A stretch of 64,000 nt of DNA from a bacterium (GCA_030430495.1 JAUIKM010000009.1:6250-70249); one strand, 5' to 3'. Positions 2,018 to 56,570 are shown, counted from the first letter of the stretch. Notes: generated by a model not told the origin, from the letters alone. Numbers and translations are program-made.

Positions 2018-2314
2018 CAAACGGCTGACCGCAATTGATCGCGGGGTCGGCATAATCCTGTTCCCTCTTGGTTCGGTGTAGCAGGCCGCGGAACGGCCGG
2101 TGGAAAATACGACAATCCCGATAGCCGCCCAACAGCCCGACACTCGGCAGGGCGGGACGATCCCCGGCGGACGCTCTTCCGGTCGCCTTGCTCTCTGAAA
2201 CCTCTGCCTGATTTTCTTGTTTGTCAGCGTGTTTGCCGTCTCGCGTCCACATCATGTCGACCGGCGCGAAGCGGCGAATGCCCCGGCAATTCCCGTTCAT
2301 CGCTCCTGAACCGC

Positions 2315-4412: not shown

Positions 4413-4735
4413 CAAAACGCCGAACTTAAACAACCATAATGGCGGAAGGCGGAGAATACAGCATCCCCGCCTCCCGCCCGAGTGAATCGGCGCACCGCTA
4501 CCGGCGCAGCGGCGCACCGCTCCGAACTATGTGCCGCCTGCTCCTGATTTCACCGCAATCCGTCACGCAACGTCGGAGAATCGTCCCGTGAATTGAATGA
4601 CCGGGAGATGAACAAACAGGCAACATGGTTACAATCGGGCGGGCGCATGCAGGCAAATACCGACCGCAACCGGGCGGACGAGATCCGTGCCGGCGGACAC
4701 ATACTGAGATCGGGCCAGGTTAAAACTCACGGCGG

Positions 4736-6073: not shown

Positions 6074-6560
6074 AGTGTCCCTCCCCGGCGCACCGCTGCG
6101 CGCCCGTCCAAACTGAGTCCCGGAAAATTTGCGGGGCATTCCGCCCTCCGCGTACATCTACCCCGGCCTGTGGCAGTTGCGCCGTCATTCCGACGCTTAC
6201 ACCGCCCATCCACCCGATTGACTGTACACCGTGCCATATCGACGATCTCACGTGCGAAGTTCTCGCCGACACCGAATCGCGAGCCGCAGCCGATCCGCCT
6301 GCAAAAATAGTCCCTGCACCGCAATATCGCCCATTCGGCCTCTCTACCGCCGCACAACACGGCCGGATTTCCGGCGCATCCGTAAAAATAATTTGCAGGT
6401 CAACCTCGGTTCGCATAGATTTGCAGGCGTCAACCAAATGGTTAAACCCTTTGATTTACCCTTTTGGTTAGTCGCCGGGATTGAAACACGCAGTCCCCGG
6501 AACAGAAGTGCGGCTTCGCCGCATTTGTCCGAAGTCCATGAGCATAACAGAGGTCCGCCA

Positions 6561-12209: not shown

Positions 12210-13334
12210 ATGCGCACGATCCTGTTTATCATCCAGAAAGAATTCCTGCAGATTTTCCGCAACAAACAAATGTTGCCGATCATCTTTGTCATGCCGATCA
12301 TCCAGCTCTTTGTGCTGGTGCACGCCGCCAATTTTGAGATTCGCAGCATTCGGCTCGACGTCAACGATATGGACCGCAGCCAGGCTTCGCAGCTGCTGCA
12401 ACAAAAACTCGTCGCGGGCGACCTGTTCCGCATTGTCAACACTTCCGCCACGGCAATGGAGGGACGTCGCAGTCTGGCGGAAGCCCACGCGGACGTCGCC
12501 CTTGTCATCCCCCACAACTTTGAACGGGAATTGCGCGAAGGTAAAAATCCCGTCGTGCAGGTTTCGGTCGACGCCTTGAACGGATTTGCGGCGGGCGTCA
12601 GCCAGTCCTATATCGCCGCTCTGGTGCAGGAGTTCAACGCGGAATATCTGGCGGCGATCGCTGCGGCGCCCCGTGGCGGCGGGCAAGCGGCGGCAATAGA
12701 TCTGAGTTCGTCCTTCTGGTACAACCGCACGATGGAATACGACATCTTCATGGCCCCGGGCATTCTGGTTGTGCTGATCACCATGATCGGCCTGTTCCTG
12801 GCGGGGATGAACATCGTCAAGGAAAAAGAAAGCGGCACAATCGAGCAGTTAAACGTCACTCCGATCAACAGAGTGCAGTTTATCGCCGGCAAGCTGCTGC
12901 CTTTCTGGCTGCTCGCCCTGGGCGAACTGAGCTTCGGCATGGTCTTTGTTAAACTCGTCTTCGACGTTCCCTTCCTTGGCAGCATCGCCCTCGTCTTTGC
13001 GGCGGCGGCAATCTACCTCGTGGTCATTCTCTCGCTCGGCCTGTTGATTTCCACCGTCACCGAAACACAGCAGCAGGCCATGTTTATCGCCTGGTTTATC
13101 ATGGTGATTTTCATTCTCATGAGCGGCATGTTTACGCCAATTGAGAGTATGCCCGACTGGGCGCAGTCAATCAGCCGCGGCAATCCCGTCGCTTATCTCA
13201 TCGAAATCATCCGCCGCGTTCTGTTAAAAGGCGCCGCCGCGGGCGACATCGCACAGCAGCTTTGGGTTCTCTCCGGAATGGCGGGCGGCGTCCTGCTCCT
13301 TGCCGGATTGCGCCAGCGCAAGTCGACCGCCTGA
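12210..13334 (+). CDS. ABC-2 family transporter permease (YbhR-like).
   Basis: A paralogous N-terminus, MRTILFIIQKEFLQIFRNKQMLPIIFVMPIIQLFVL, and the same architecture as the preceding gene. Confidence 0.85.
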   Translation: MRTILFIIQKEFLQIFRNKQMLPIIFVMPIIQLFVLVHAANFEIRSIRLDVNDMDRSQASQLLQQKLVAGDLFRIVNTSATAMEGRRSLAEAHADVALVIPHNFERELREGKNPVVQVSVDALNGFAAGVSQSYIAALVQEFNAEYLAAIAAAPRGGGQAAAIDLSSSFWYNRTMEYDIFMAPGILVVLITMIGLFLAGMNIVKEKESGTIEQLNVTPINRVQFIAGKLLPFWLLALGELSFGMVFVKLVFDVPFLGSIALVFAAAAIYLVVILSLGLLISTVTETQQQAMFIAWFIMVIFILMSGMFTPIESMPDWAQSISRGNPVAYLIEIIRRVLLKGAAAGDIAQQLWVLSGMAGGVLLLAGLRQRKSTA

Positions 13335-13387
13335 CGAGGCCGGGCTTTGTTAACTTCCGGCAGTACATCTGCCGAAATTGCGCCTGC

Positions 13388-13592
13388 GCGCCTGTTTTTG
13401 TCGGCTCACTTTGTTAAACCACCGACCAATTTCAGAGCGCTCACCTGCGGTGGCTTTTATGACTGTTTTGTTTGTCGTGGAGTGTTGTGCCCGGAGGCTG
13501 CGGGACTGTCTTCAAACCCAAAGTCTCCGAGACTTCAACCCGTCCCGCAGCTCACAGTCTTCAAACCCGGTGATAAACAAAAAAATCAAGAA
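13388..13592. mobile_element. MITE/REP-like intergenic element, bounded by an inverted TTTTTGT(T/C) motif and containing a nested 10-bp-stem hairpin.
   Basis: The left end reads CCTGTTTTTGTCGGC. The right end reads CCGGTGATAAACAAAAAAA, which is the reverse complement of TTTTTTTGTTTATCACCGG. Inside is GCUGCGGGAC...GUCCCGCAGC, enclosing AGUCUC-CG-GAGACU. The right arm TTTTGTTTATCACCGGGTTTGAAG matches 56320..56345 at 24 of 25 positions. Confidence 0.5.
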
Positions 13593-13692
13593 GCCCATGA
13601 GCCTGCAAAGCAGCGAGTGAGGCGCCCTCAGGCCAGGTGAAAAGTCAGCGGAAAGTTAACAAAAGTGCTCGCAGAGCCGCGGTGAACGTCGT

Positions 13693-14655
13693 TTAATCAT
13701 ATCGGCGAAAGAGGTCAAAAGCCGTGTCCAGATCGACGTTGCCGCCGCTGATGACAATGAGAATTCTCTTGCTGCGCAATTGTTCGGCCTGTTTAAGCGC
13801 CACCGCCAGCGAGACCGCGCCCGAGGGTTCAACGATGATGTTGAGGTATTGCCACAACAGACGCATGGCGCGCACGATATCCGCGTCGTCCACCGTGTAA
13901 ATATCGTCGACATTATGCTGGATAATCGGCCAGGTGAGCTCGCCCAGTGAAGTAAGAAGTCCGTCGGCAATTGTGTCGGGTTTAACAGACGGAATGATGT
14001 GACCCGCGCGCAGTGAACGCAGTGCGTCGTCGGCCCCGGTCGGTTCCGCGCCCCAGAGTCGGGCCGTCCTGCCGTCGGCGCGCAGACTCAGCGCCGTGCC
14101 GGAAAGCAGGCCGCCGCCGCCCACCGGAGCAATGACGTGGTTAAACACGTCGTCGTCCTGCAGCGCTTCCCTCAGCGCCGTGGACTGGCCGCAGATAATG
14201 CGTTCGTCGTCGTAGGGATGCACCACGTGCGCGCCCAGGTCCTCCACCAGGCGGGCCACCCCGTCCTCGCGCGCCTGCAGCGTCGGCACGCAGTGATGAA
14301 TATTTGCACCGGCATTGCGCACACGCCGTTGTTTAACTTCCGGTGCATTGTCCGGCATGACGATGTTTGCGTCTATTCCGCGCATCTGCGCCGCCAGAGC
14401 CAGCGCCGCCGCGTGGTTGCCCGAAGAATGAGTGGTCACGCCGCGCTTGGCGGTTTCCTCGTCCAGACCAAAAACGGCATTACATGCGCCGCGAAACTTA
14501 AACGCGCCACAGTGCTGCAGGTTCTCGGGTTTAAAGCGAAGATCGAGGCCCGTGACTTTGTTTAACTCGGCGGAAAACAAAAGCGGCGTGCGCCGCACGT
14601 AAGGTGCTATGCGCTCCGCCGCTTGTTGAAGTTCGTGTTCCTGCGGGAACTGCAT
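13693..14655 (-). CDS. Threonine/serine dehydratase-like PLP enzyme (fold type II, Trp-synthase beta superfamily).
   Basis: The HSSGNHAAALA and GGGGLLSG glycine loop are typical of threonine ammonia-lyase or serine racemase. The start codon overlaps the upstream gene's stop by 1 nt (TAATG). Confidence 0.8.
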   Translation of the reverse strand: MQFPQEHELQQAAERIAPYVRRTPLLFSAELNKVTGLDLRFKPENLQHCGAFKFRGACNAVFGLDEETAKRGVTTHSSGNHAAALALAAQMRGIDANIVMPDNAPEVKQRRVRNAGANIHHCVPTLQAREDGVARLVEDLGAHVVHPYDDERIICGQSTALREALQDDDVFNHVIAPVGGGGLLSGTALSLRADGRTARLWGAEPTGADDALRSLRAGHIIPSVKPDTIADGLLTSLGELTWPIIQHNVDDIYTVDDADIVRAMRLLWQYLNIIVEPSGAVSLAVALKQAEQLRSKRILIVISGGNVDLDTAFDLFRRYD

Positions 14656-17600
14656 TACTGGTTTGCGCCGCCGGATGCCGCGTCCGCCCCGCCTTCCGGC
14701 AGACTGTCGCTCACCGGAAAACCGGCCTTGCGTTTAAGGTCCATGATCTGGAACTCAATTTGCGGAATCAGGGCGTTGAGGTACTGATGCCCGGAGTTGC
14801 GATAGGATTCGATCACCTTCTCGGCTTCCGCGATTGCCTCGCTGTACTTGCCTTCCGACTCGTATTTCTCGATGCGGAGTTGATCGATAATCCCTTGCAG
14901 GCTGGGGTCGTCGCCGCGGCCGATTGATTCGCCGTATTGCTGCCAGTAATCCATTGCGGCGTCGTAGTTGCCGAGCATTGTGCTGGCGTCTGCGGCGATC
15001 TGAGCCGGATTATAGGAGTAGGTATAGCGCTCGCGCGTATTCCAGAGTTGGCGATTTTCGGGTTGCAGCAGAAAGTCGGACGATTCCAGCGCCATCTGCG
15101 CAAAGTGCTCGGCCTGGCGCTCCGCTCCGGCGCGGCTGTAGATTTCGGCTATCTGCATTTCCGTGGCAAAAGGCATCGGGAACATCTTGCTCGAAATGTA
15201 TTTGTCGAGCGTGTCCATGACGGCAGTCGCCTTTTCCTTGTTGCCCTGATTCAGCTGCCAGGTGGCGTAGTTCAGGTAGATATTGCGATAGCTGGGAACC
15301 GGGCGCCGGTTGGATTCGTCGTAGTAGACGTCCGGATTGTTCAGGTTGCGCAGTTTCCAGCCGTAGTGCTGCTGCTTGTGATAGTCGTTGCCCGGAATGA
15401 TGTTCAGCAGCGTCTGGTCCATGATGGCTTCGTTGCAGGCAAAAAAGCCGGACTGGTTGTTTTGTGAAACCGGACAGACGCGCAGACACATTCCCTCCAG
15501 GCGGAAGAAGTCTTCCAGCCCCGCATAGGCGTCGGGACCGACGGACATGGAGTAGTACACCGGACGCTCAAAACGCGTGGTTTTGAGGATGTCCGTCACC
15601 AGCTGGTCCTGCACGCGGATCACGTATTCCTGCGGCTCACTACCGCTGCCGTAGGGATCGCCGATGAGCTGCCAGCTCATTTTACCACTGTTGATAATGG
15701 CGGGATCGTCCGTGTACTGGCGCAGGATGTCGGGCGAAACGCTGACTTCCATCGTGCGCTCGCGGTCGATGTAATATGTCAATGCGACCGGCGAGTTTTC
15801 ATCGCGCGTCTGAATCGAAGCATCGCTGAACGAGAGCGGAATCTGCTCCGCGTTCCACGGTCGTTCGTTTTTCAGCTGATCGACGTACCAGAGGGTGTTG
15901 CCGAGGCTCAGGTTGACGATGCGCACGTCGCGACGCACGCCGGCGACGTCCTGCAGGTACCAGACCGGGAAGGTGTCGTTGTCGCCGTTGGTAAAGACAA
16001 TCGCATTTTCCTCGACGCTCTGCAGAATATTATAGGCGTAGTCGAATGGCAGGTAGTTGCCGCTGCGATCGTGAATCGCCCAACCCTGCCAGGCCATGTT
16101 GGCCGGTACCGCCACAAAGGACAGGATCAGAATGACGGCCACCAAAGGCGCGTAACCCGCCTCGCGCTGACGTCGCAATTGTTCGGCGATAAAATACACG
16201 CCGAGGCCTATCCACATGGCAAAGACCATAAATGAACCGGTGTAGAAATAGTCGCGCTCGCGCGGCTGCGGATTCTGTTGGTTCTGCTGCAGCGCAGCTA
16301 TTATTCCGGTCAGCAGGAAAAGCACAAAGTACGCGATTGCCATGCGCGGATCGCGGAATGCCTGAAAGAAGAGACCCAACAGTCCAAAGAGCAGCGGCAG
16401 CGCAAAGAAGCGCGCCGGAAAGTGCTCGGCGAAGGTGCCGACGCCGTAGAGCCAATAGTCTTCATCCGCCCCGATTTTGGTCCAGGGCGCGTCCTGAATG
16501 TCGCTCACCCGGCCGATAAAGTTCCAGGCGAAGTAACGCCCGTACATGTGGCTGGCCTGGTAGTCGATCAGGTAGTTGAATTCGCCGGCTGCGTTGACCT
16601 GGTTGAAGACAGGTACCGCCAGCACCACGCCGTCTTCGCGCTCAACGCGTTCGCGATCGGGCGGATACCATTCGCCGTAGGCGTTAAAATTGCGCTGAAT
16701 ATGCGGACGCGTGTCGTAGCGACGCGGCCACATAGGCGCATCGCCGTATTGTTCGCGGCCCAGGTAGGACACCAGGCTGCTGAGGTCGTTCGGGTTGTTT
16801 TCGTTCATCGGCGGGTGGGCGTTGGCGCGCAGCAGGATGTGCGTGTAGGTGCTGTAGCCCACAAAAATCAGCACAAAACAGGAGCCGACCACCACCAGGA
16901 GGTTGCGGTTGTTGCGCCAGGACCAGAAGATGAAAACCGCCGTGAAGAGCACCAGGAAACCGGCCACGATGCGGTCCAGTTTGCCGGCGTTGATTGTCCA
17001 GTTGCCGTCGATCATGGCCGGCAGCCACTTGACGATGCCGGGGTAGACCATGCCGAAAGCCGCCACCGCCGCGACGCCCATGACCAGGAAGGACAGCAGG
17101 CCCGGCTCGTTTTTGCGGAAGTATATAATGAGTGCAATCGGGAAGATCGTCAGAACCGCCAGCAGGTGAACGCCGATTGAAAGGCCGATCAGATACGCGA
17201 TCATCAGCAGGTAGCGCTCGTTGCCGGGATTGTCCGCCTCCTCATGCCATCGCATGATCAGCCAGACAATGATCGCCACAAAGAGCGTCGAGGCCGCATA
17301 GACCTCCGACTCCACCGCGTTAAACCAGAAAGTATCTGAAAAGATAAAAGCCGCCGCGCCGATAAAAGACGAGCCGTAGACCATCAGGCCCTCGCCGAAG
17401 TCCTTCGGTTTTTCGCCGCGGAAGTTGTTGATGACTATGACGGAGATCAAATAGAGAAGCAGGACACAAAATGCGCTGGAAAGCACGGAGACCAGGTTGA
17501 TGCGCCAGCCTTCATCGCCGAAGGGCAATAAAACGTGAAACACCTTGCCGACCATCAGAAACAGCGGCGCGCCCGGCGGGTGCGGCACCTGTTGCTGGAT

Positions 17601-17726
17601 GGCCGCGGCCGAAAATTCACCGCAGTCCCAGAACGGGACCGACGGCTGCACCGTGAGCATATAGGTGACGAGCGCCAGAGCAAATACCAGGATGCCAAAA
17701 GCGCGATGGAGAGTCTTTGTATCCAT
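14655..17726 (-). CDS. DUF2723 (TMEM260-type) GT-C fold membrane glycosyltransferase-like protein with a C-terminal TPR region. Paralog 1.
   Basis: From the internal ATG at 17726 the N-terminus is MDTKTLHRAFGILVFALALVTYMLTVQPSVPFWDCGEFSAAAIQQQVPHPPGAPLF, the DUF2723 signature. There are about 11 TM helices, then a large soluble region with TPR-like repeats. The track ORF extends 25 codons further upstream. Confidence 0.8.
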   Translation of the reverse strand: MDTKTLHRAFGILVFALALVTYMLTVQPSVPFWDCGEFSAAAIQQQVPHPPGAPLFLMVGKVFHVLLPFGDEGWRINLVSVLSSAFCVLLLYLISVIVINNFRGEKPKDFGEGLMVYGSSFIGAAAFIFSDTFWFNAVESEVYAASTLFVAIIVWLIMRWHEEADNPGNERYLLMIAYLIGLSIGVHLLAVLTIFPIALIIYFRKNEPGLLSFLVMGVAAVAAFGMVYPGIVKWLPAMIDGNWTINAGKLDRIVAGFLVLFTAVFIFWSWRNNRNLLVVVGSCFVLIFVGYSTYTHILLRANAHPPMNENNPNDLSSLVSYLGREQYGDAPMWPRRYDTRPHIQRNFNAYGEWYPPDRERVEREDGVVLAVPVFNQVNAAGEFNYLIDYQASHMYGRYFAWNFIGRVSDIQDAPWTKIGADEDYWLYGVGTFAEHFPARFFALPLLFGLLGLFFQAFRDPRMAIAYFVLFLLTGIIAALQQNQQNPQPRERDYFYTGSFMVFAMWIGLGVYFIAEQLRRQREAGYAPLVAVILILSFVAVPANMAWQGWAIHDRSGNYLPFDYAYNILQSVEENAIVFTNGDNDTFPVWYLQDVAGVRRDVRIVNLSLGNTLWYVDQLKNERPWNAEQIPLSFSDASIQTRDENSPVALTYYIDRERTMEVSVSPDILRQYTDDPAIINSGKMSWQLIGDPYGSGSEPQEYVIRVQDQLVTDILKTTRFERPVYYSMSVGPDAYAGLEDFFRLEGMCLRVCPVSQNNQSGFFACNEAIMDQTLLNIIPGNDYHKQQHYGWKLRNLNNPDVYYDESNRRPVPSYRNIYLNYATWQLNQGNKEKATAVMDTLDKYISSKMFPMPFATEMQIAEIYSRAGAERQAEHFAQMALESSDFLLQPENRQLWNTRERYTYSYNPAQIAADASTMLGNYDAAMDYWQQYGESIGRGDDPSLQGIIDQLRIEKYESEGKYSEAIAEAEKVIESYRNSGHQYLNALIPQIEFQIMDLKRKAGFPVSDSLPEGGADAASGGANQ

Positions 17727-17839
17727 ACGGTTGCCGATGTCCGATTGAAATTGTTGGCCGTCGGAGAAATGCGCTGCGCGCGTCCGGCCTGTGACACACA
17801 AATCCGTAATTTACCGCTTTGAGCGCAGACTGCAAGGTC

Positions 17840-19039: not shown

Positions 19040-19683
19040 CTGTTTAATAACACGCCGGATTTTTCTCCGGCGACTTACACGGATGTTCCTGAGGGACTGA
19101 CACGGTTGAGCGCTGTAAAACGTGTAGCGGCTTTGTGGTTGGCGGGATTGAGGCCTGTCAGAAAGCGCTGTGCGCTTTTGGTTCTCCTGCCTGATTGACG
19201 CTGAACGACTTGAGGCTTGAGCGCTTCGCCCCTTCGTTCCACTCTGTGGCTTGCTTTTTTCTTTTTGTTTGCCGGCGGGTGTCGAACTTGGAGACATCGG
19301 GACCGCAAAAGGGTACGCCGGCCGTTGGTCGATTTTTTTCGATCAGATCAAATTTTTGTTTCGCTCGCTCTTATCGGCGAATTCAGCCTGCAAGGCGGAC
19401 ATCTCCGGCACGCGTAATGTAGATTTTTCACCTCGGCCATGTTTTCGGTTTGTTTCATTTGGCAAACGTTCGCTATGTTCCCACAAATTTCAAAGACATC
19501 TAAAAGAATCGCGCAGCACATCCACTCCCCAACACTCTGCATTTATGTATCCGATTCTTACTGGTCTCTGAATAACAGAAATCCGCAAAAACCACTGCCG
19601 TGAACCGCAAGGTTCAAACCCACTCGGTTGCGGAGAGTACATACGCCTTATGGATGGTGCACTGTTCAGTCCCGGCGTAAAGA

Positions 19684-19707
19684 TGAACCAAACAGACGTG
19701 TTTGGTT
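19684..19707. promoter_or_regulatory. 24-bp perfect palindrome GAACCAAACAGACGTGTTTGGTTC (10-bp arms, 4-bp spacer), a candidate dimeric TF operator.
   Basis: Read directly from the sequence, about 77 bp upstream of the 19784 ATG, inside an unusually AT-rich 740-bp intergenic region. Confidence 0.5.
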
Positions 19708-19783
19708 CGGCGACAAGTAAAAACCAAGGCCGTTTATCGCGATTTATTCGCTCAGTCATCCCAAACACTGGGAGTATTTCAAC

Positions 19784-20722
19784 ATGATGAAACAAATCTA
19801 TCAACGCTCATTGATAACGAGCACGCTTTTGACGACCGTTATGATTCTGCTGTTCTCAAGTTTAACCGCCAACGCACAATGCCTGCCGGACTGCCGGCAA
19901 TCGCCGTGGGGACCGCCGCAGACGAGAAATATCATCTTGTTTCATGAGTGTTTTGGCTGTGCTATAGAAGTGACTTTTGTCACAAGACGTGCTTGCGGAG
20001 CATTCGATGACATGCAGATAACTGAAGTAGAATTGGTTTCCGGCTGTGGTGGATGTACGCTGCAAGAAGTATTCGAAGCGGCATTTGAAGCACTGATTAT
20101 GGATGAACCTCGAATTTTTGAAGACCCTGATAATGGAGAGTGTGCAAATAACTGGCGTATTTCTTCAGCCGGCTGCTTTAACGAATGGTTCGTGACATTT
20201 CCGGAAGGAGGATCCGGTACATTCCTCGTGCCCTGCGACGGTGAAACCTGTTGTTTGACCCCGCTTCGGGTTTGTCGCGACAACAATGGAAATATTGAGT
20301 CAATCACACCTCTTGGTGGCCCCTTTGGCGGTGGTGATTGCGCCCAGTCTACTCCTGTATTTGGCGAGGGCCCCTGTTTTACGACCTGCGAATTTGACGG
20401 ATTTACTCTGGGCAAAGGTTCTCTACCTGGTGGCCGAGTTACCAACGATCCGGCACATGCCATTGAGCATGCGATTGCCATGCCCAATCCGGCAACCGGC
20501 ACCACGGTTGAATTCGAACTCGACGTAAACGCAGCCGGCCAGGCACATTTGGCGATTTATGACATGCAGGGGCGCATCGTCAAAGAAACATCTGTGAGCC
20601 TTGCCAATGGCAAAGCGCGCGTCGCCGTCGACGTCGCCGATTTGACACCGGGCTCCTACGTTTATGAACTGACGGTGGCCGGGCGCAAACTCGTCAACGA
20701 CAAACTTGTGATCAGCAAATAA
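19784..20722 (+). CDS. Secreted cysteine-rich protein with a Por/T9SS C-terminal sorting domain.
   Basis: N-terminal signal peptide MMKQIYQRSLITSTLLTTVMILLFSSLTANA. More than 25 Cys in about 200 aa. The C-terminal roughly 80 aa (NPATGTTVEFELDVNAAGQAHLAIYDMQGRIVKE...GSYVYELTVAGRKLVNDKLVISK) match the T9SS CTD pattern. Confidence 0.7.
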   Translation: MMKQIYQRSLITSTLLTTVMILLFSSLTANAQCLPDCRQSPWGPPQTRNIILFHECFGCAIEVTFVTRRACGAFDDMQITEVELVSGCGGCTLQEVFEAAFEALIMDEPRIFEDPDNGECANNWRISSAGCFNEWFVTFPEGGSGTFLVPCDGETCCLTPLRVCRDNNGNIESITPLGGPFGGGDCAQSTPVFGEGPCFTTCEFDGFTLGKGSLPGGRVTNDPAHAIEHAIAMPNPATGTTVEFELDVNAAGQAHLAIYDMQGRIVKETSVSLANGKARVAVDVADLTPGSYVYELTVAGRKLVNDKLVISK

Positions 20723-20760
20723 TATACTGAATCGTTATTTTATCTTTTTCTCAGAATACT

Positions 20761-22236
20761 ATGCAACGCAATTCAGCCGATTACGGTTGTTGGCTGCAAG
20801 AAGTAGGAGGGATCGCATCACCGGTCCCTCCTACCTTTATTGATACTTTCAATCGGACTTCAATGAAGCCCGCACGGACGACAGACAAAATCATGCACAA
20901 TTTCAAATCGCCCCTTCGCCTCAACATCGGGAAATTTTTCGCTTGTTTCTTTATCAACAGTATGTTCGTAGTAGTCTGCGCCATTGCGCAGCCACACTAC
21001 TGGGAGACTGTCGATCATATCCCAAGCCTTGATTACGAGGACATTGATTGTGCCGACAGCAATTCAATAATGGCGGTTGGCAACTGGGCCAACGGAGCGA
21101 GGCCGACAATCCGTAGAACGACGGATGGCGGCAAGACCTGGACCTCAGTAATTGAGAATGAAGTCGAGCGCGATGAAAATGGGAATGCAATCAGTTTTCC
21201 AATTCGTTTTATTGCGATTTCCCATCCTTCACCAGATATTGCCATCGTCGCTGCGGACAGTGGATTGATTTTGAGAACCTATGATCAAGGAAGTACCTGG
21301 GACACTCTGAATTTTGGCTTTGATGAGAGATTTCGCGACGTCGCGGTGACGCCCGCCGGCTCCGGAATTGCCACGACTATCAATGACCGGATATTTCTTA
21401 CAAATGATAGTGGAAAAACCTGGGAAGAAATCGAGTCGCCCGGAATAGCTTCTCAACGTGACATTGCATTTTACGACGGCATTGACGTTGTCCTGAAAGT
21501 ATTCACTGGTCCTGAAAACGGTGTTGGAGTCCGAACTAAAAAACTGGGAGAAAAGCAATGGAACGCCTTTGTAGCTCCAAACGAGCCTGGTGAAATGTTT
21601 TTCGCCACACCCGAAATTGGTTGGCTGGTTGGTTTTGAAACGACCGAAGGCAGTATTGGGAACGACCTCATTTACTCCACCACAGACGGAGGTAAAAACT
21701 GGACAACATTGCTTCGTGAACAAATAGAACAACCCTATGGATTGTACAGCATTGCCTTCGCCGACGAAAATCACGGTATAGCAGGCGGCTACTACGGTAA
21801 AATTCTTCGCACCAGTGACGGCGGTAAAAACTGGATTGTGGATACATCCGATATCAGAGAGTCCATTTTCCATGTGGTCATGAAGGTTTCATACCCCTAC
21901 ATAGATCTGGCTTATGCTGTCAGCCAAAACGGCCACATCGTGCGTTACAAACCGACGACCACATCGGTGGACGACGACACTCCGCGACGTCAAAACGAAC
22001 CCGTCACGCTCTACCCCAATCCGGCCACGCAGACAATCAATATCAAACTGCCGAAGCACTGTTTAAACTCGACAGTTGAACTCTTTGACGCCGCAGGCAG
22101 AAAGCTGCGGACACGGAACGCGCGGTCCGCCCGACAGATTGCTCTCGACGTCAATGGTCTGGAAGCGGGACTTCACATTGTCAGGCTCTCCGGCTGCGGC
22201 GAGTCATATACGCAGACGGTGATGATTGCCCGTTAA
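20761..22236 (+). CDS. Secreted BNR/Asp-box (Ycf48-like) beta-propeller repeat protein with a T9SS C-terminal sorting domain.
   Basis: Repeated S/T-x-D-x-G-x-T/N-W motifs: TTDGGKTWTSV, TYDQGSTWDTL, TNDSGKTWEEI, STTDGGKNWTTL, RTSDGGKNWIV. The C-terminus YPNPATQTINIKL...VELFDAAGRKL...GLHIVRL has the T9SS CTD pattern. The likely start is an internal Met (MKPAR, or MHNF at 20893) before the hydrophobic signal segment. Confidence 0.7.
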   Translation: MQRNSADYGCWLQEVGGIASPVPPTFIDTFNRTSMKPARTTDKIMHNFKSPLRLNIGKFFACFFINSMFVVVCAIAQPHYWETVDHIPSLDYEDIDCADSNSIMAVGNWANGARPTIRRTTDGGKTWTSVIENEVERDENGNAISFPIRFIAISHPSPDIAIVAADSGLILRTYDQGSTWDTLNFGFDERFRDVAVTPAGSGIATTINDRIFLTNDSGKTWEEIESPGIASQRDIAFYDGIDVVLKVFTGPENGVGVRTKKLGEKQWNAFVAPNEPGEMFFATPEIGWLVGFETTEGSIGNDLIYSTTDGGKNWTTLLREQIEQPYGLYSIAFADENHGIAGGYYGKILRTSDGGKNWIVDTSDIRESIFHVVMKVSYPYIDLAYAVSQNGHIVRYKPTTTSVDDDTPRRQNEPVTLYPNPATQTINIKLPKHCLNSTVELFDAAGRKLRTRNARSARQIALDVNGLEAGLHIVRLSGCGESYTQTVMIAR

Positions 22237-22322
22237 ACTTCTTTCAAAGGCGCAGGGTGTACAGATCTACGTAATTTTCTCAGAGATTGAAGAATCTGCC
22301 GTTTTTGGCACGACAGAAAAAT

Positions 22323-22351
22323 GAGCTGTGTGCCCTAAGGGCACACAGCTC
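22323..22351. terminator. Bidirectional intrinsic-terminator-like hairpin between convergent genes.
   Basis: GAGCUGUGUGCCC-UAA-GGGCACACAGCUC, a perfect 13-bp stem with a 3-nt loop, flanked by T-rich runs on both strands (tacgtaattttc appears on both sides). Confidence 0.6.
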
Positions 22352-22421
22352 ATACGTAGTTTTACGTAATTTTCAGTCTTTTCGCCGCAGCGACCAACGC
22401 TCAACCCAAAATCCCGCCCGC

Positions 22422-25400
22422 TCAGGCGTCGGGAAGTGACAAACCAGCCGCCGAGTCTCCCGGCGCCCCGGCTTTGAACTGGAGCTGCCGCATATGCTGC
22501 TCCAACTGCGGAATAATGCCGTTCAGGTATGCCGAACCCGAAGCGCGGTACTCAGTGATAATCTTCTGAATTTCCGCGATGGCCGCTACCACATCGCCCT
22601 CCGCCGTGTGGCGCTCGATGCGCAGCTGATCGATGACCGCTCGCAGGCCGGGGTCGTCGGCCCGGCCGATTGAAGCGCCGTAATCGCGCCAGTACTGCAT
22701 CGCTTCGTCGTAGCGACCGAGTATGGTCACCGCCTCGGCGGCAATCTGCATCGGGTTGTACGAATACGTGTACAGTTCGCGCGTGCCCCACAGATCCCGG
22801 TTGTTTAACAGATGTTCCGAGGACTTCAGTGCCATCTCCGCGAATTCGCGCGCACGCTCCGTTGCTCCCGCGCGCAGGTACATGTCGGCTGTTTGCAGCT
22901 CGACGGCAAAAGGCATCGGGAACATCTCCGTAGAAATGTAGTCGTTCATTGTGTTGAGCACCTGCTGCGCCTTGTCGTTTTTGCCGCGAGCAATCAACCA
23001 GTTGGCGTAGTTCATGTAGATATTGCGATAGCTCGGAATCGGACGACGGTTGGACTCATCGTAGTAAACATCCGGGTTGTTTAAGTTGCGCAGCTTCCAG
23101 CCGGGATGCGGTTCGGTGAAGAACTCATCACCCTCAACGATATTCATGATTGTCCGGTCCATCATCTCTTCACTACAGGCGTACAGATCGCCGCGATTGT
23201 GCTGCGGTACCGGACAAACGCGCATAGCCATGCCCTCCATCCTGAAGTGATCCTGCAAACCTGCGTAGGCGTCTGGACCGACAGACAGGGAGAAGTACAC
23301 GGGCCGCTCAAATCGAATAACTTCGATTATTTCGCGGATCAACTGATCCTGAACACGGAACACGTACTCGCCTTCACCGTGATTAAACTCCTCACCCTCA
23401 AAGAGCCAGCTCATCTTCGGCGTCTGCAACAAGGCCGGGTCGTCCGTGTATTGCGCCATGATTTCGCGGCGCACCGGCACTTCAACCTGACGGGCCTTGT
23501 CGATGTAGTACGACAGCGCCTCGCGGGCGTTGGGATCGTCAACCTGGATTGACTCATCGCTGAAACGCAGTGGAATGGCCGCAGCGCCCCACGGTTCGCT
23601 GTTTTTCAGTTGATTGACGTACCAGGGGGTATTGCCGAGGCTCAGGTTAACAATGCGTACGTCGCGACGCACGCCGGCAACGTCCTGCATGTACCAGACC
23701 GGAAATGTGTCGTTGTCGCCGTTGGTAAACACAATCGCATTTTCGTCAACGCTCTGCAGGATATTGTAGGCGTAGTCAAAGGGCATGTAGTTGCCGCTGC
23801 GATCGTGCACTTTCCACCCCTGGATGGCCATGCTCGCCGGCGCGGCGACAAAACTCACCAGCAGGACGCAGGCCACAATCGGCAGGGCCATGCGTTTATT
23901 GATGCTGCGTGCGCGTTCCGCCAGATAATAAACGCCGATTCCGATCCACATGGCAAAGATCATGAATGAACCGGTGTAAAAGTAATCGCGCTCGCGCGGC
24001 TGCGGATTCTGTTGGTTCTGCTGCAAGGCAACGATTATCCCCGCCAGAATAAACAGAATGAAAAATGACGCGGCGGCTTTTGGATCGCGCCGTGCATGAT
24101 AAAACAAACCGAGCAGGCCCAACAGAAAAGGCAAAGCAAAAAAGTTAATCGGAAAATAGTCCGCGAACAGTCCGACGCGATAATTCCAATAGTCCACATC
24201 TGCGCCCGGATGCACCCAGGGAGAATCCTGTATGTCGCCGACGCGCCCGATAAAATTCCAGGCAAAATAGCGCCAGTACATGTGGTCGGCCTGGTAGCTG
24301 AGCAGGTAGTTCAACTCCGCCCGGGTATTGATGTCGCTGTTCTCGTAGTCGACCACGCTCAACGCCATACCGTCGCGACGAACAACGCGTTTGCGCGCCG
24401 GCGGCTGCCATTCGCCATAGGCGTCAAAGTTGCGCTGAATCTGCTTGCGCGTATCGTGGCGACGCGGCCAGAAAGGAGCCTGGGGATATTGTTCGCGCCC
24501 CAGATAGTCCGCCAGGCCGCTGAGGTCGCCGGGATTGTTTTCATTCATCGGCGGATTGGCATTTGCGCGCAGCAGAATGTGACCGTACGTGCTGTAGCCG
24601 AGAACCGTCAGAATAAAACAGGCGCTGACGAGCGTCAACAGCCCCGACCGGCGACGGTATGCCCAGATAAACAGCACCAACGCAGCGCTTAATATTGAAT
24701 ATGCCAGGAGCCGCAACAGGGAGCTGTCCACCGCCATCCACTCGTTCGCTTCCGTCTTGAACGGCGCGTGACCGTCCATCATGCCCGGCAGCCACTTGAC
24801 CATACCGGGATAAATCACAAAAAAGACGGCTACAGCTATTGCGCCCATTGTGATAAATGTTAACGGTTTGAATTCGTACTTGCGGAAGTACACGATCATC
24901 GCAATCGGAAATATCGTCAGCAGAGCCAACAGGTGAACGCCGATCGACAATCCAAGCAGATAGGCAATGAGGAGCAAATAGCGCTCGTGCCCCGCCTCGT
25001 CGGCAGCTTGATGCCAGCGTAAAATCAGCCAGACAGTCAGCGCGACGAACAAAGTCGAAGCGGCATAAACCTCCGATTCCACTGCGTTGAACCAAAAAGT
25101 ATCGCTGAATGTCAACGAACATGCGCCGACAAACCCCGCGCCGTACACCGAGAGCGCCTCCGTGAATTCGCGCGGCCGGCCGCCGCGGAAATTGTCAATC
25201 ACCAGGACAATTATCAGGTACAACAGCAGCGCTATCACCGCACTTGCACAGACGGAAACGAGATTAACACGCCAGGCCGACTCGCCGAAGGGGATCAGCA
25301 AATCAAATGTTTTACCGACCATCAGAAAAAGCGGCGCGCCCGGCGGATGCGGCACCTGCTGCTGTACGGCCGCCGCGGTAAATTCCCCGCAATCCCAGAA

Positions 25401-25493: not shown

Positions 25494-25753
25494 GGTCTTC
25501 CGTCCGGAATTCGCAGCCGCAGTTTGTTAAAGACAAACAATGGCGGCGACGGCAATGAAATGCAGGGGCGTACGCCTCCGCTTCACCGTCGAATGTGAAG
25601 TGTCAATCTGTGTTTAAGTACGGATAGAGGGGCGGCTCGCTACGACCGCACCGAAGTGAATACCGGGACAGCGTCGTGGTTAACGCTTAAACAAACCCGA
25701 CCCGCGCCTGCACGGCTCCGGGTTTTCGTTTAACGACTTTTTCTGAGCAGAGA

Positions 25754-33320: not shown

Positions 33321-35255
33321 GTGGCGCCTATGAGCGACGCATCCGCACCGGGCCGCGCATCGAAGGACGACAACAAACTCGACGGCAAATTGCTGAAACG
33401 ACTGGTCGTCTTTTTGAAGCCCTATAAACGCCTGGTTATCCTGGCAATTGTCTTTAACATTCTGGCCGCAGGCCTTGGGCCCTTCCGCGCAGTCCTCGTG
33501 AACTACGCCGTGGACGACGCCATCAAGATTACGGCGGTCGATGATGACAGCCCCACAGACGCCGGCGCATCGCTCACCCCCGGCGCAACGACTGAACCTC
33601 AGACTCCCGCCCTCTCTCCCGCTGACAAACAAAAGAATGCCCAAAACGATCCGCAAACACGCTACGATCTGCTGCAATTTTACTGCCTCAGCATTTTTGG
33701 ACTGCTGGTGCTGCAGGGCCTGCTGCAGTATTTCCTGACGCTCCTGATGAACTGGATCGGCCAGAATACGATCAACGATGTGCGGACGACGCTTTTTGAC
33801 ATCGTACAGCGATTGTCGCTGCGTTTCTACGACACAAATCCGATCGGGCGGCTGATTACGCGGGTTACCAGCGATGTGGAGGTGTTGCAAACGATGTACA
33901 CCGACAGCCTGGTGATGATCATTTCGAACGTCTTCCAGCTGGTGTTTATCGTCGCGGCCATGTTCATCGTCTCGTGGCAACTCGCCTTTGCCACGCTGGC
34001 CATCGTGCCGCTGCTGCTGATCGCCACGTCGATTTTCCGCCGCCACGTGCGCGAGGCCTTCCGCAGTATTCGCGGCCTCGTCTCGCGCATGAACGCCTTC
34101 CTGAATGAGTACATCACGGGCATTTCCGTGGTGCAGCTCTTTTCCCAGGAACGCAAACAGGCCGCCAAGTTCGACAAGATCAACAAGGAACACACCGACG
34201 AGCAGATCCGCACCGTCACCTACTACGCGCTCTTTTTTCCGGTTGTGGACTTCCTGACTTCGATGTCGACCGCCATAACGGTTGGTTTCGGCGGCTGGGC
34301 CATCACGGGCGGCAGCGTGGAACTGGGCGATCTGATCGCATTTATCCTGCTCTTTGAGCTCTTTTTCCGTCCCCTGCGCGAACTGTCGGACAAATACAAC
34401 GCACTGCAAAACGCCATGGCTTCGTCGGAGCGCATTTTTGAGCTGCTCGACGAAGACTCATTTATCTCCGACTCACCGCAGGCGCAGGATATGCCAAGGT
34501 TGGCGCGCGCCGTGGAATTCAACAAGGTCGGCTTTGCCTACGACGGCGTCAACTTTGTGCTCGACGATATTTCCTTTACCGTCAACAAAGGTGAGACGAT
34601 TGCAATTGTCGGCGCCACGGGCGCGGGCAAGAGTTCCATCATCAACCTGCTGACGCGATTTTACGAGTTCCAGCGCGGCAGTATCCGCGTCGACGGCGTC
34701 GACATCCGCGACCTGCGCCAGAATTCCCTGCGCAGTCACATCGCAATTGTGCTGCAGGATGTCTTCATGTTTTCGCGCAGCGTGCTCGACAACATCACAC
34801 TCGGCGACGAAAACATTACGCGCGAGGATGCCGTCGCGGCCGCCAAAGCCGTCGGTGCGCACGACTTCATCGAACGGCTGCCGCAGGGCTACGACACGCA
34901 GGTCCGCGAACGCGGATCCACGCTCTCCGTCGGTCAAAGGCAACTCTTGTCCTTTTGTCGCGCACTCGCCGCGGACCCGGACATTCTCATTCTGGACGAA
35001 GCGACGTCCAGCGTCGACACGGCAACGGAACAGATTATCGAGGCGGCCATTTCGCGTCTGCTGGCGGGCCGCACCTCAATTGTTATTGCACACCGCCTTT
35101 CCACCGTCCGCCGCGCGGACCGGATCATTGTTATGCACCGCGGCAAGATGTACGAGCAGGGCAGCCACGAGGAATTGATCGCGGCCGACGGCCTGTACGC
35201 CAAGCTGTACAAATTGCAGTACAAGGAACAGCTCACCACTCCGCTCGACTCCTGA
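33321..35255 (+). CDS. ABC exporter, fused permease-ATPase (MsbA/lipid-export-like).
   Basis: Six-TM domain followed by an NBD: Walker A GATGAGKSS, signature LSVGQRQLLSFCRAL, Walker B ILILDEATSSVD. The antisense ORF 33198..34409 is spurious. Confidence 0.85.
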   Translation: MAPMSDASAPGRASKDDNKLDGKLLKRLVVFLKPYKRLVILAIVFNILAAGLGPFRAVLVNYAVDDAIKITAVDDDSPTDAGASLTPGATTEPQTPALSPADKQKNAQNDPQTRYDLLQFYCLSIFGLLVLQGLLQYFLTLLMNWIGQNTINDVRTTLFDIVQRLSLRFYDTNPIGRLITRVTSDVEVLQTMYTDSLVMIISNVFQLVFIVAAMFIVSWQLAFATLAIVPLLLIATSIFRRHVREAFRSIRGLVSRMNAFLNEYITGISVVQLFSQERKQAAKFDKINKEHTDEQIRTVTYYALFFPVVDFLTSMSTAITVGFGGWAITGGSVELGDLIAFILLFELFFRPLRELSDKYNALQNAMASSERIFELLDEDSFISDSPQAQDMPRLARAVEFNKVGFAYDGVNFVLDDISFTVNKGETIAIVGATGAGKSSIINLLTRFYEFQRGSIRVDGVDIRDLRQNSLRSHIAIVLQDVFMFSRSVLDNITLGDENITREDAVAAAKAVGAHDFIERLPQGYDTQVRERGSTLSVGQRQLLSFCRALAADPDILILDEATSSVDTATEQIIEAAISRLLAGRTSIVIAHRLSTVRRADRIIVMHRGKMYEQGSHEELIAADGLYAKLYKLQYKEQLTTPLDS

Positions 35256-35320
35256 CGTACACGCCTGTTTAAGCTTCGCGTTCGATGAATTCCGCCCGGA
35301 TCGACTTGCAGCTTCCCATT

Positions 35321-35460
35321 TACTCGGCGGCCTGACATTTTTGTTTGTCAGCGCGAGCGGGGCGTGGGGCTGGTTTGGAGACGTCTGGTTTACTCGGCGG
35401 CCTGACATTTTTGTTTGTCAGCGCGAGCGGGGCGTGGGGCTGGTTTGGAGACGTCTGGTT
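35321..35460. repeat. Perfect 2x70-bp tandem duplication. Each unit contains a CUGACA-UUUUUGUU-UGUCAG hairpin.
   Basis: 35321..35390 equals 35391..35460 base for base: TACTCGGCGGCCTGACATTTTTGTTTGTCAGCGCGAGCGGGGCGTGGGGCTGGTTTGGAGACGTCTGGTT. It lies between convergent genes. Confidence 0.9.
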
Positions 35461-35816
35461 GAGCGATGGACATTAGATCTGGCGGCAAAAAACAATTCAG
35501 ATGTAGTCTTGAACAAAGACCTTGTACAGTATCACAACCAGGCGTTCAGCGATAGCCAAAAGTCGCCGAACTTCAAGTCCAAAGTCCGTTTCAATCACAT
35601 CAGTGCAACATCACCTGAAATCCCGGCGGTTCGCAGCGGGCCTGAAACAGGCTGGTCCAAAGTATCAGTGCGGTCGGGAGGACAAAAGCAGTTAAACCGT
35701 GGTGTCGGGAAAACGTCGTAACTGTGTCGGAAGGCGTTGATCTCTCGTGCGCCGTACATGCATGGGTGGGTTTAAAAGCAGACGGGCCGCTTGCGCGGCC
35801 CGTCCTGTTAACAGTC

Positions 35817-46171: not shown

Positions 46172-46218
46172 TTGTTTGTCGCGCAGCTGAAAGTGTTAAA
46201 CACAGCGACAAACAAAAG
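46172..46218. repeat. Hairpin of the TTGTTTGTC/GACAAACAA family: 11-bp stem, 22-nt loop.
   Basis: CTTGTTTGTCGC-gcagctgaaagtgttaaacaca-GCGACAAACAAG. It lies 11 bp after the stop of the 44827..46161 gene, so it is possibly a terminator. Confidence 0.55.
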
Positions 46219-48875: not shown

Positions 48876-49771
48876 AACTGAGCATCGGGCGCACAACGCG
48901 CCTGCACGGCCAGACGGCGATCCTGCTTTCGCCCTGGATGATCACCTTCCTGGTGTTCTGGCTTTTTCCGCTCATCTACGCGTTGTACATGAGTTTCACG
49001 CGTTACCTGACGCTGCGCAACGAGGCCGAGTGGATCGGGTTCGACAACTACGTACGCATCTTCAACGACGACCTGTTCTGGACGGCGCTGGCCAATACCT
49101 CGATTTTTGTCGTCGGAACGATCCCCTTCACGACGGCGCTGGCGCTGGGCCTGGCTTTGGCGGTGCACCGCGTCAAAAAATTCCGCAATTTTTTCCGCTC
49201 GGCTTTTTTCCTGCCTTCGGTCAGCTCGCTGGTGGTGCTCTCGCTCATCTTCACCAATCTCTACGCCAAGGACGGCTACATCAATTACCTGCTGCAGATG
49301 CTGGGACTCGACTACCCCGAACGCGGCTGGCTGCTGGAACCGTCGACGGCGCTCTTTGCCGTGATGGGCATGGAGGTCTGGATTTCGGCAGGATATTACA
49401 TGGTTATTTTCCTGGCGGCGCTGCAGACGATCCCGAAGGATTACTACGAGGCGGCCGAGCTGGCGGGCGCAAACCTTTGGACACAACTGACGCGCATAAC
49501 CATTCCCCTGCTCAGACCAACCCTCTTGTTTGTCCTCGTGATCAACACGATCAAGTCGTTTCAGGTATTCGTCGAGATTTACGTGATGACAAAGGGCGGT
49601 CCATTGCACGCCACAACAACGCTGATTTACCAGGTATTTATCAACGCCTTTGAAAAAGCCGATATGATGGGTTATGCGGCGGCGCTGGCCTATGTGGTTT
49701 TCATAATAATTCTGCTGTTTTCCCTTCTACAGATCAAAATTTTGCGCATCGACCGCGGAACAGGCGAATGA
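48872..49771 (+). CDS. ABC transporter permease (MalF/UgpA-type, binding-protein-dependent). An orphan.
   Basis: EAA loop AAELAGANLWTQLTRITIPLLRP and six TM helices. Start ATGA-coupled to the maf stop. The stop overlaps the plsY start. Confidence 0.75.
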   Translation: MKLSIGRTTRLHGQTAILLSPWMITFLVFWLFPLIYALYMSFTRYLTLRNEAEWIGFDNYVRIFNDDLFWTALANTSIFVVGTIPFTTALALGLALAVHRVKKFRNFFRSAFFLPSVSSLVVLSLIFTNLYAKDGYINYLLQMLGLDYPERGWLLEPSTALFAVMGMEVWISAGYYMVIFLAALQTIPKDYYEAAELAGANLWTQLTRITIPLLRPTLLFVLVINTIKSFQVFVEIYVMTKGGPLHATTTLIYQVFINAFEKADMMGYAAALAYVVFIIILLFSLLQIKILRIDRGTGE

Positions 49772-56317: not shown

Positions 56318-56412
56318 TCTTTTGTTTGTCACCGGGTTTGAAGCCGGAAGACTTCGGGGCTGTTAACAGACTCGCAGGTTTGGAGCTTAAAACTCGCTGA
56401 CAAACAAGAGGG
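56318..56412. mobile_element. MITE/REP-like element with imperfect about-16-bp terminal inverted repeats of CCTCTT(TT)GTTTGTCA.
   Basis: The left end is CCTCTTTTGTTTGTCACCGGGTTTGAAG. The right end is GCTGACAAACAAGAGG, which is the reverse complement of CCTCTTGTTTGTCAGC. The left arm matches the right arm of the 13388..13592 element. Confidence 0.5.
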
Positions 56413-56570
56413 AAAAGCAAGCCGCCCGCAGAGCGGAGGCGAAGCGCTCAAACCTCAGACAATCAGCAATACCGATTCAATCAAACCTTAAACACATCGG
56501 CAAACGGCAGATCCGGACCGCTTAAACAACGGCCCGGGCAAGTGGTGAACGCGGCAACAATCAGAGATAA

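Follow-up and report, generated by a model that had tools for sequence, protein, structure and literature searches.

A T-rich word at operon ends of an uncultured Kapabacteria member: a candidate family of REP- or BOX-like interspersed repeats

In a stretch of 64,000 nucleotides of bacterial DNA (GCA_030430495.1, JAUIKM010000009.1:6250-70249; this whole stretch is referred to below as the window) the T-rich word TTGTTTGTC, which we call the T box, keeps recurring, and its recurrence is real and non-random. What this word represents is a matter of interpretation. The account we rank first, and which in our opinion has about an even chance of being right, is that the T box is the best-conserved part of short interspersed repeats that form a lineage-specific family, similar to REP/BIME, ERIC or BOX elements and not a transposon-derived miniature inverted-repeat transposable element (MITE). 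It is an undescribed family, of an ordinary and already familiar kind of element. Proteobacteria and Firmicutes are well known to have interspersed extragenic repeats. To our knowledge such repeats have hardly been described in the candidate class Kapabacteria, a class known from metagenomes only, from which the window comes.

The word is present in 11 exact copies when both strands of the window are counted. Only 0.53 are expected from dinucleotide shuffles, and the highest count among 100 such shuffles was 4. The 10-mer TTTGTTTGTC, with at most one mismatch allowed, occurs 21 times against 4.2 expected. Nine of the 11 exact copies (82%) are non-coding, that is, they lie in the 11.45% of the window outside the gene map; the binomial tail probability is 1.5e-7, rising to 1e-6 when an identical 70-bp duplicate is counted once. 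The density is one copy per 5.8 kb. The original prediction had described a core shared by a series of intergenic places, and all of them exist: 2217(+), 13468(+)/13572-13581(-), 19264(+), 25532(-), 35341(+)/35411(+), 46172(+)/46207(-) and 56322(+)/56399(-). The list was incomplete, however, for it overlooked 33624(-), 49526(+), 17793(-), 13393-13402, 3225(-) and 42414(+). A further word, TTCAAACCC, said to recur four times, indeed does so (4 occurrences against 0.59 expected), but its positions had been given slightly off; they are 13511, 13560, 19613 and 56334.

As had been noticed earlier, the copies tend to sit after stop codons or between convergent genes: ten of the 12 non-coding copies are located 3' of a co-oriented stop codon, with the T-rich strand being the sense strand. 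Inverted arms are found in four of the six convergent spacers of at least 100 nt, and the remaining two (4413-4735 and 22237-22421) have classical hairpin-plus-T terminators instead. No T-box copy is found in divergent promoter regions, for example 6074-6560, 33135-33320, 41330-41484 and 43467-43588.

The assignment of the window to Kapabacteria (Bacteroidota/Chlorobi group) is based on the type IX secretion sorting domains of proteins encoded in it and on the nearest named relatives of its TMEM260-like and ABC proteins, which carry the labels Candidatus Kapabacteria or Kapaibacterium. Taken together, these point to an uncultured member of the class. The G+C content is about 57%, and Logan assemblies from several runs contain the window sequence at 100% identity. 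The closest material for comparison is GCA_964445695.1, from the same species cluster (L003 and L006), which together with the Logan contigs L004 and L005 has about 91% DNA identity to the window over its 6-35 kb part; next is an ENA contig, L047, of 86% identity, which spans 41-63 kb. A sister genome, GCA_028284775.1 (L048 and L053), is about 68% identical. We also used a 2.2-kb contig (L052) coding for an ABC protein 75% identical to that of the window, and a distant set of 30 loci from Kapabacteria and Ignavibacteria. A scan of genome collections with the TMEM260-like protein as query gave one same-species genome and relatives at no more than 57% identity, and the motif is absent from the latter. 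The L003/L006 contig, CAYULF010000011.1, is titled 'uncultured Hyphomicrobiales bacterium'; this label seems wrong, given that the named homologues of its genes belong to Kapabacteria.

The basic unit of the family is a T-rich arm of about 25-50 nt with the consensus ...TGAC.TTTTTGTTTGTC(A/G)(G/C)CG..., and the T box is its best-conserved outer end, both in imperfect palindromes of 39-160 nt and in single arms. Some copies have an extra flank of about 60 nt before the arm, consisting of TTGAGCGCTTCGCC, a small variable hairpin and then GGCTTGCTTTT. The full module of about 85 nt thus reads, in order, TTGAGCGCTTCGCC, the variable hairpin, GGCTTGCTTTT, a further T-rich stretch, TTTTGTTTGTC and (A/G)(G/C)CG. 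It is common to three copies, 2168-2243 (+), 19206-19292 (+) and 56462-56381 (-), with nhmmer E values between 1e-19 and 3e-10; 13631-13556 (-) matches it more weakly over the full length. Most copies are alike over just 13-35 nt around the box. In an all-against-all comparison of the spacers such matches were 13-24 nt long and no common body or interior was found, and the conserved sequence continues outward beyond the paired boxes. Individual stretches can nevertheless be very similar: 13559-13582 and 56320-56343 agree at 23 of 24 positions, which bears out the near-identity proposed for these two copies, and 19211-19230 and 56438-56457 at 19 of 20. Two types of sequence follow the box. One, ACCGGGTTTGAAG..., is present at 13.5 and 56.3 kb and, in diverged form, as GGCGGGTGTCGAA at 19.2 kb and as GGCGGGTTTCAAG at the orthologous site of L003. 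The other, AGCG.GAG.GGGG or AGCGAGTTTTAAG, is present at 2.2, 33.6, 35.3 and 56.4 kb. Since the palindrome at 56.3 kb has one arm of each type, and these are 76% complementary over 49 nt, the two types are diverged forms of one arm.

Most non-coding copies come as inverted pairs of arms, in which the T-rich arm is first on either strand, and a few arms are single. Because the arms of a pair face each other in inverted orientation, each paired locus is palindromic, though imperfectly, over 39-160 nt, and its interior is free. The order of the arms is the same in all three clear pairs and in a degenerate pair at 35.3-35.5 kb. The palindromes at 46.2 and 56.3 kb are centred on GTGTTAAACAC and CTGTTAACAG, respectively. 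Palindromy is clear only for pairs of arms, not for individual arms. A short TGAC(A)...(T)GTCA stem encloses a T-rich loop in about half of the arms, with one covarying case (TGAT/ATCA), and is missing from the rest. The apical hairpins vary between copies yet stay paired: CCGC/GCGG in some against CCAC/GTGG in others, and likewise TGAC/GTCA against TGAT/ATCA.

The largest of the palindromes, about 160 nt at 13440..13600, lies between the convergent genes of an ABC-2 permease (12210-13334, +) and a PALP enzyme (13693-14655, -). Its T boxes are TTTTGTTTGTCG at 13465-13476 (+), with the core at 13468, and TTTGTTTATC at 13572-13581 (-); an inner hairpin pairs CTGCGGGAC (13498-13506) with GTCCCGCAG (13542-13550). 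The element folds at -56 kcal/mol on both strands, with z scores of -2.5 and -3.1. It is found at the orthologous site in both L003 and L005, and a consensus hairpin of 57 pairs, one of them compensatory, is kept in all three sequences. The palindrome at 56319..56410, 92 nt in length and centred on GTTAAC, separates the convergent Wzy_C (+) and SufE (-) genes. Its cores are at 56322(+) and 56399(-), its left arm reads TTTTGTTTGTCACCGGGTTTGAAG... and its right arm, as the reverse complement, CTTGTTTGTCAGCGAGTTTTAAG...; the RNA fold has z -3.6 on the plus strand and z -1.3 on the minus strand. The flank module with its T box at 56381..56462 (-), downstream of SufE, reads GAGCGCTTCGCC, the hairpin CCGCTCTGCGGGCGG, CTTGCTTTTCCCTC and TTGTTTGTCAGCG (nhmmer E=1e-19).

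Two smaller palindromes have the same design. The 44-nt hairpin at 46172..46215, which begins 11 nt past the stop codon of a PMT_2-like gene, consists of TTGTTTGTCGC, a 22-nt loop centred on GTGTTAAACAC, and GCGACAAACAA, with cores at 46172(+) and 46207(-); its 11-bp stem, proposed earlier, is indeed perfect. At 25511..25549 there is a compact palindrome of 39 nt, which on the minus strand reads TCGCCGCCATTGTTTGT-CTTTA-ACAAACTGCGGCTGCGA. Its core (25532-25540, -) precedes the ATG of the TMEM260-like gene 22422-25493 by 38 nt, and its 17-nt arms, 76% complementary, are kept in L003, where one change improves the structure. The array at 35319..35495 (+) begins 64 nt past the stop codon of the ABC exporter gene 33321-35255. 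It has two identical tandem units of 70 nt (35319-35388 and 35389-35458), each with CCTGACATTTTTGTTTGTCAGCGCGAGCGGGG and with cores at 35341 and 35411, followed by a degenerate inverted arm at 35479-35495. Within the exporter gene itself, antisense to it, a T box with about 35 nt of the 70-nt unit is located at 33616..33650 (-, core 33624); this copy and 35339-35362 form 24-nt inverted repeats, 88% complementary.

Among the single arms, the one at 2168..2243 (+; core 2217-2225, TTGTTTGTCAGCG; nhmmer E=3e-10) lies about 90 nt upstream of a minus-strand Reg_prop gene and is directed away from it. The arm at 19206..19292 (+; nhmmer E=5e-14) is likewise upstream of, and directed away from, a minus-strand gene, the HemN-like one. 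It reads TTGAGCGCTTCGCC, the hairpin CCAC AGA GTGG, GGCTTGCTTTT, the T box TTGTTTGCC (19265-19273; the word starting at 19264 on the plus strand is TTTGTTTGCC) and GGCGGGTGTCGAA, and its orthologues in L003 and L005 have the exact core. Several further sites are less certain. A diverged T box TTTGTGTGTC at 17793..17802 (-), a one-mismatch match, lies in the 116-nt spacer between the HemN-like gene and a TMEM260-like paralogue; it is identical in L003, and its membership in the family is weak. A weak variant, TGTTTTTGTC, is at 13393..13402 (+), within 102 nt specific to the window (13336-13437), and the variant TTTTTGTTCGTC is at 3225 (-) and 42414 (+). Finally, the exact core at 49526..49534 (+), on the sense strand of coding DNA and present in L047 also, has no family-like flanks and a position weight matrix score of 18, clear members having 23-28; chance or an embedded copy could account for it.

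What do the relatives tell about the history of these copies? All comparable loci (13.5, 17.8, 19.2, 25.5, 33.6, 35.3, 46.2 and 56.3 kb) are occupied in the relatives at 86-91% identity. There is no polymorphism of filled and empty sites at any of them, and the tandem copy number alone varies: two identical units in the window versus at least three diverged units in L003, in which the conserved part is limited to CTTGTTTGTCAGCG.GAGCGGGG. In L047 the cores at 56.3 kb have drifted to TTGTTTGCC and GACAAGCAG with the site still occupied; both cores at 46.2 kb are intact there, and arm positions 10-11, which provide two extra stem pairs, are lost. The density of the core in L003-L006 and L047 is 1.4-3.5 per 10 kb. 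The 42 kb of the sister genome have no core, except for a diverged module in a tandem array of 165-nt units, and the spacer between the ABC and PseudoU genes, 561 nt in the window, is there 139 nt with no box. The array (L048 14739-15460) has 3.4 copies of its unit according to TRF, with further diverged copies up to about 15460, and is flanked by a 128-aa open reading frame (ORF) and a gene for a secreted beta-propeller. Its units contain, on the plus strand, a strong hairpin (two of them were folded, with z -3.9 and -3.2) and then GGCTTTTGTTTC, and the opposite strand has TTTGTTAGTCCCGGTTTGAAAC, a diverged copy of the first arm type. Comparison of the array with Rfam gave chance-level matches only. 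Synteny of the array with 2.2-3.0 kb of the window was considered and rejected, as the adjacent Reg_prop proteins are 22% identical and DNA similarity is nil.

Further away the family is not seen. In the 30 distant loci the core is at chance level, and a metagenome scan with the 21-mer TTTGTTTRTCRSCGGGTTTSA gave 10 matches, about the estimated chance number and all in unrelated contexts. Given both results, the repeat family is limited to a single species-level lineage of Kapabacteria. The 3.5 kb of DNA beyond the window that could be reached via the proteins at its edges contain no copy.

Within this lineage the family sequence has spread, as evidenced by the tandem 70-nt unit and by the copy in the ABC exporter gene. 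The latter gene has an in-frame insertion of 43 codons (129 nt), at about 33528-33660, in the first extracellular loop. The inserted segment is of low complexity, rich in Pro, Thr and Asp, and none of the nine aligned homologues has it, not even the 75%-identical one. Besides the box copy, with about 35 nt similar to the 70-nt unit, it contains another box-like word at a distance of 29 nt. The insertion itself is not palindromic, and its junction positions are approximate, because the 75%-identical homologue is too diverged in the nucleotide alignment.

Two other differences between the window and its relatives fall next to elements. A DJ-1/PfpI-family gene and another of about 205 aa, which in L003 (19103-20795) and L005 are located between the PALP and ABC-2 permease genes, are missing from the window. 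The 102 nt of unrelated sequence at 13336-13437 replace this pair, and the junction 13437/13438 is the edge of the 13.5 kb palindrome. Beside the 19.2 kb arm, the window has a 3.1-kb insert (19146-22275; G+C 49-53%) in place of 170 nt in L003; two genes in it code for proteins with type IX secretion C-terminal sorting domains. Indels fall preferentially in spacers in any case, and these two are indistinguishable from that tendency.

If the copies are repeats of the REP or BOX kind, their arrangement suggests the following. Nearly all of them are past stop codons, chiefly between convergent operons, so that read-through RNA coming from either side would fold into a long hairpin. Such a hairpin could protect the 3' end, or stop or insulate convergent transcription, or do both; an arrangement of this kind is how REP, ERIC and BOX elements are believed to damp read-through or to protect 3' ends. 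We infer such a role from position and orientation, which fit an RNA hairpin at operon ends. The family has multiplied slowly within the lineage, the 70-nt unit being duplicated in tandem and one copy being placed in frame in the ABC exporter gene, and since spreading the copies have been passed on vertically.

Several observations weigh against this reading. Single arms and the flank module fold no better than shuffled sequence (z -1.4 to +1.8), and structure in the 70 nt upstream of the boxes does not exceed that at random positions. In the palindromes the U-rich arm is 5' and the A-rich arm 3', hence the trailing U-tract of a classical terminator is lacking. Classical, strong hairpin-plus-T terminators do occur in the same DNA, at 22321-22353 (a perfect 15-bp stem with T runs on both strands), 4441-4478 (a 15-pair stem) and about 35780-35803 (a perfect 10-bp stem), and so the organism does use ordinary intrinsic terminators. 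Of the three best full-length arms, two (2168-2243 and 19206-19292) are found upstream of, and directed away from, a gene. The sister genome does without elements at these operon ends, so they are not essential. A mobilising enzyme was not identified in the 64-kb window, where genes for transposases, RAYT proteins and integrases are absent; a cognate RAYT-like gene, which the original prediction had proposed to look for, is thus not encoded there. Lastly, the copy counts cover only about 64 kb and the corresponding region in relatives.

The explanation we rank second, and consider doubtful, is that the copies are tail-to-tail intrinsic terminators: the T box would be the U-tract of a hairpin upstream of it, a pair would be two convergent terminators, and the family would be a terminator cassette. 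Indeed, homology runs outward from the paired boxes into the hairpin-bearing flank and then CTTGCTTTT...TTGTTTGTC; terminator-like sites were scored at 56436-56422 and 13441-13453; and in three of three pairs the arms are ordered such that each box is nearest its own gene and on the sense strand. According to our reading of the alignment, three G-U pairs of the flank stem are possible on the T-rich strand only. The unit of the sister-genome array, too, is a strong plus-strand hairpin (z -3.9) directly before GGCTTTTGTTTC, and the box contains TTNTTT, which we take to be the NusG-dependent pause motif of Bacillus. However, the upstream hairpin is weak or absent in about half of the copies. A convincing one is seen at 56399(-) and plausible ones at 2217, 13573 and 25532, the other copies having a weak hairpin or none, whereas the T tract is always present; the folding energies are those of background, none being better than in shuffled controls. 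In several copies the box is 15-45 nt away from the hairpin, and the arms at 2217 and 19265 have no co-oriented gene upstream. Nor does a U-tract require an exact word of 9-13 nt, and the box is missing from the orthologous operon ends of the sister genome. It is because of the weak or absent upstream hairpins, the shuffle-level folding and the two arms pointing away from genes that we rank the repeat family above the terminator cassette.

The remaining explanations have less to recommend them. A DNA site for a lineage-specific protein (a regulator, nucleoid protein or recombinase), with the palindromes as paired sites, would agree with a short exact core amid variable flanks and with the L003 tandem units keeping only the box and a 3' extension of about 14 nt (AGCGAGAGCGGGG). 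It would also agree with the sense-orientation box found 38-70 nt upstream of the start codon of both TMEM260-like paralogues and with the indel junctions near boxes. But the copies are mostly at gene 3' ends while divergent promoter regions are free of them, the neighbouring genes have no common functional theme, the cores in L047 decay and are not replaced, and no candidate binding protein was identified in the sequences studied; judged from sequence, such a site is distinctly unlikely. Less credible again are true MITEs, non-autonomous transposons with T boxes as terminal inverted repeats and a transposase encoded elsewhere in the genome. The inverted termini of 9-17 nt on elements of 44-160 nt (25.5, 46.2 and 56.3 kb, imperfect at 13.5 kb), the copy within a lineage-specific insertion in a coding gene, the indels among close relatives adjoining two elements (13437/13438 and 19146-22275) and the lineage restriction are all features one would expect of them. 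On the other side, the flanks, read directly, have no target-site duplication at the 13.5, 25.5, 46.2 and 56.3 kb palindromes, where the complementarity just fades away. The copies have no interior in common, conserved sequence reaches beyond the supposed termini, the comparable loci are all occupied in relatives of 86-91% identity with the cores there merely decaying, the ABC-gene insertion is not a palindrome, and the window has no gene for a mobilising enzyme. The characterisation of the family as REP/MITE-like therefore survives in its first half, as a dispersed, hairpin-forming, mainly intergenic family, and fails in its second. A promoter element seems very improbable to us, be it a variant of TAnnTTTG, which we take from general knowledge of Bacteroidota promoters to be the -7 box of that phylum, or another sigma-factor motif driving short convergent transcripts. 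While TTTGTTTG matches TAnnTTTG at five of six specified positions and two copies are 38 and about 70 nt upstream of start codons, all divergent intergenic regions are without the box, paired boxes would fire at each other, and a scan for sigma-70 showed no surplus of promoter-like sites. A housekeeping promoter element would be expected in the 30 related loci too, and the box is specific to one lineage; with its absence from divergent promoter regions and related genomes, we rejected that version altogether. Least credible of all is a DNA uptake sequence. Those of Neisseria (DUS) and Haemophilus (USS) often form terminator-like hairpins as inverted pairs, have a density of roughly one per kb and are frequent in coding DNA. 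A short exact word, frequently in inverted pairs past genes, a dialect-like change in the sister genome (TTTGTTAGTC) and indels close by are reminiscent of them, but about one copy per 6 kb with nine of 11 non-coding is not, competence is not known in the Kapabacteria group, and another word family of the window, GTTTAA/GTTAAC, has a distribution that fits uptake better.

The GTTTAA/GTTAAC family is an observation in its own right. GTTTAA/TTAAAC occurs 102 times versus about 18 expected, GTTAAC 54 versus 15, TGTTTAAG 19 versus 0.8 and ACTTAAACA 10 versus 0.16; TGTTAACA has 8 sites, each counted on both strands (16 versus 0.9). These words are even on both coding strands and 2-3 times enriched in spacers, a distribution like that of HIP1 or uptake sequences. 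Examples are at 4425, 25686, 46192-46202, 56259-56266 and 56360-56367, and the words form the centres of the 46.2 and 56.3 kb palindromes.

Returning to the interspersed-repeat reading, no named family could be matched to the elements, in agreement with the first impression. Rfam 15 gave no match in the window either at gathering thresholds or at E<=5, and in the literature the motif word matched primers and unrelated sequences only, with nothing relevant on palindromes of Kapabacteria. Resemblances to attC, parS, dif and sigma-54 sites were rejected by eye because the consensus positions misfit, and an origin of GGGTTTGAAGCC from a tRNA fragment (T-loop) is unsupported, since a tRNA scan of the window found none.

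One close parallel is with REP/BIME elements of Enterobacteria and Pseudomonas. These too are short interspersed repeats with hairpin potential and species-specific sequence, almost wholly extragenic and located at operon 3' ends, and they form mosaics of alternating orientation with variable linkers and extra motifs. The placement seen here, with nine of 11 copies non-coding and inverted arms in four convergent spacers, is of the same sort. REP/BIME elements are thought to stabilise mRNA 3' ends and to attenuate transcription, a role that the present family may share. Whereas a REP unit is a GC-rich palindrome of 20-40 nt, here a single unit consists of an A/T-rich arm; the aligned arms have no GTAG/CTAC tetranucleotide, and the window has no RAYT gene. 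BOX elements of Streptococcus pneumoniae are similar in their modular build (boxA-boxB(n)-boxC), with a variable tandem module comparable to the 70-nt unit (two in the window, at least three in L003). They are likewise intergenic, can form stable hairpins and have no known mobilising enzyme. However, there is no sequence similarity, the host belongs to another phylum, and the modules here are inverted arms and not in the fixed A-B-C order. With ERIC/IRU and the Rickettsia palindromic elements (RPE) the family shares imperfect palindromes of about 100-150 nt in transcribed spacers and, with RPE, an in-frame copy within a protein gene, here in a tolerant surface loop of the ABC exporter. It differs from both in that the interior is not conserved, and the copy in the gene is a single arm in a 129-nt insertion and not a full palindrome. 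MITEs such as the Correia elements of Neisseria also have terminal inverted repeats and are small and intergenic, but here there is no target-site duplication, conserved body, insertion polymorphism among relatives or, within the window, matching insertion sequence. Like Rho-independent terminators, the copies have a T-rich tract after some GC-rich hairpins, past stop codons; unlike them, the palindromes have the T-rich arm 5' and not 3', the upstream hairpins are weak, and the exact word exceeds what a compositional tract needs.

A more speculative possibility, which we consider unlikely, is that the T box is the recognition signal of a lineage-specific activity at operon ends. This could be a hairpin-dependent ending or insulation of convergent transcription, in which the U-rich arm comes first, or a recombination hot spot. 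A hot spot at the T box would account for the 19146-22275 insert, the lost DJ-1/PfpI pair (13437/13438) and the in-frame ABC insertion.

Some other features of the window should be recorded. A duplicate of 244-265 nt (2309-2573 and 2755-3019; 95-97% identity, 446 nt apart) lies in a 1.5-kb stretch with no convincing gene; the ORFs in this region have no Pfam match, and there is no Rfam match. The TMEM260-like (DUF2723) paralogues at 14655-17723 and 22422-25493 are about 1020 aa long, 7.7 kb apart and 69-83% identical in blocks of DNA, and both have a T box upstream. In the sister locus L053 there is no TMEM260-like gene between the peptidase S26 and HemN-like genes. At 44710-45836 about 1.1 kb, most of a PMT_2-type glycosyltransferase gene, is present in the window but not in L047 (3430-3490), which has only a 63-aa ORF there. 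The spacer of about 640 nt at 46216-46852 has no called gene in the window or in L047 and contains near-identical blocks, e.g. 46330-46420; it could be an unannotated small gene or RNA.

As to the significance of the family, it explains breaks in the short-read assemblies of this organism: Logan contigs break within the 70-nt array, and another ends in the second 265-nt duplicate, at window position 2974. It can be used as a marker for one lineage, it flags operon boundaries, and it documents a repeat-derived in-frame insertion in the loop of a transporter. General concepts are unchanged by the finding. If it is true that the hairpins end or protect transcripts, the family would reveal what marks operon ends in a group in which transcription signals are unstudied; its value is in our opinion modest, as an aid in annotation and assembly and as a lead to the operon-end signals of Kapabacteria.

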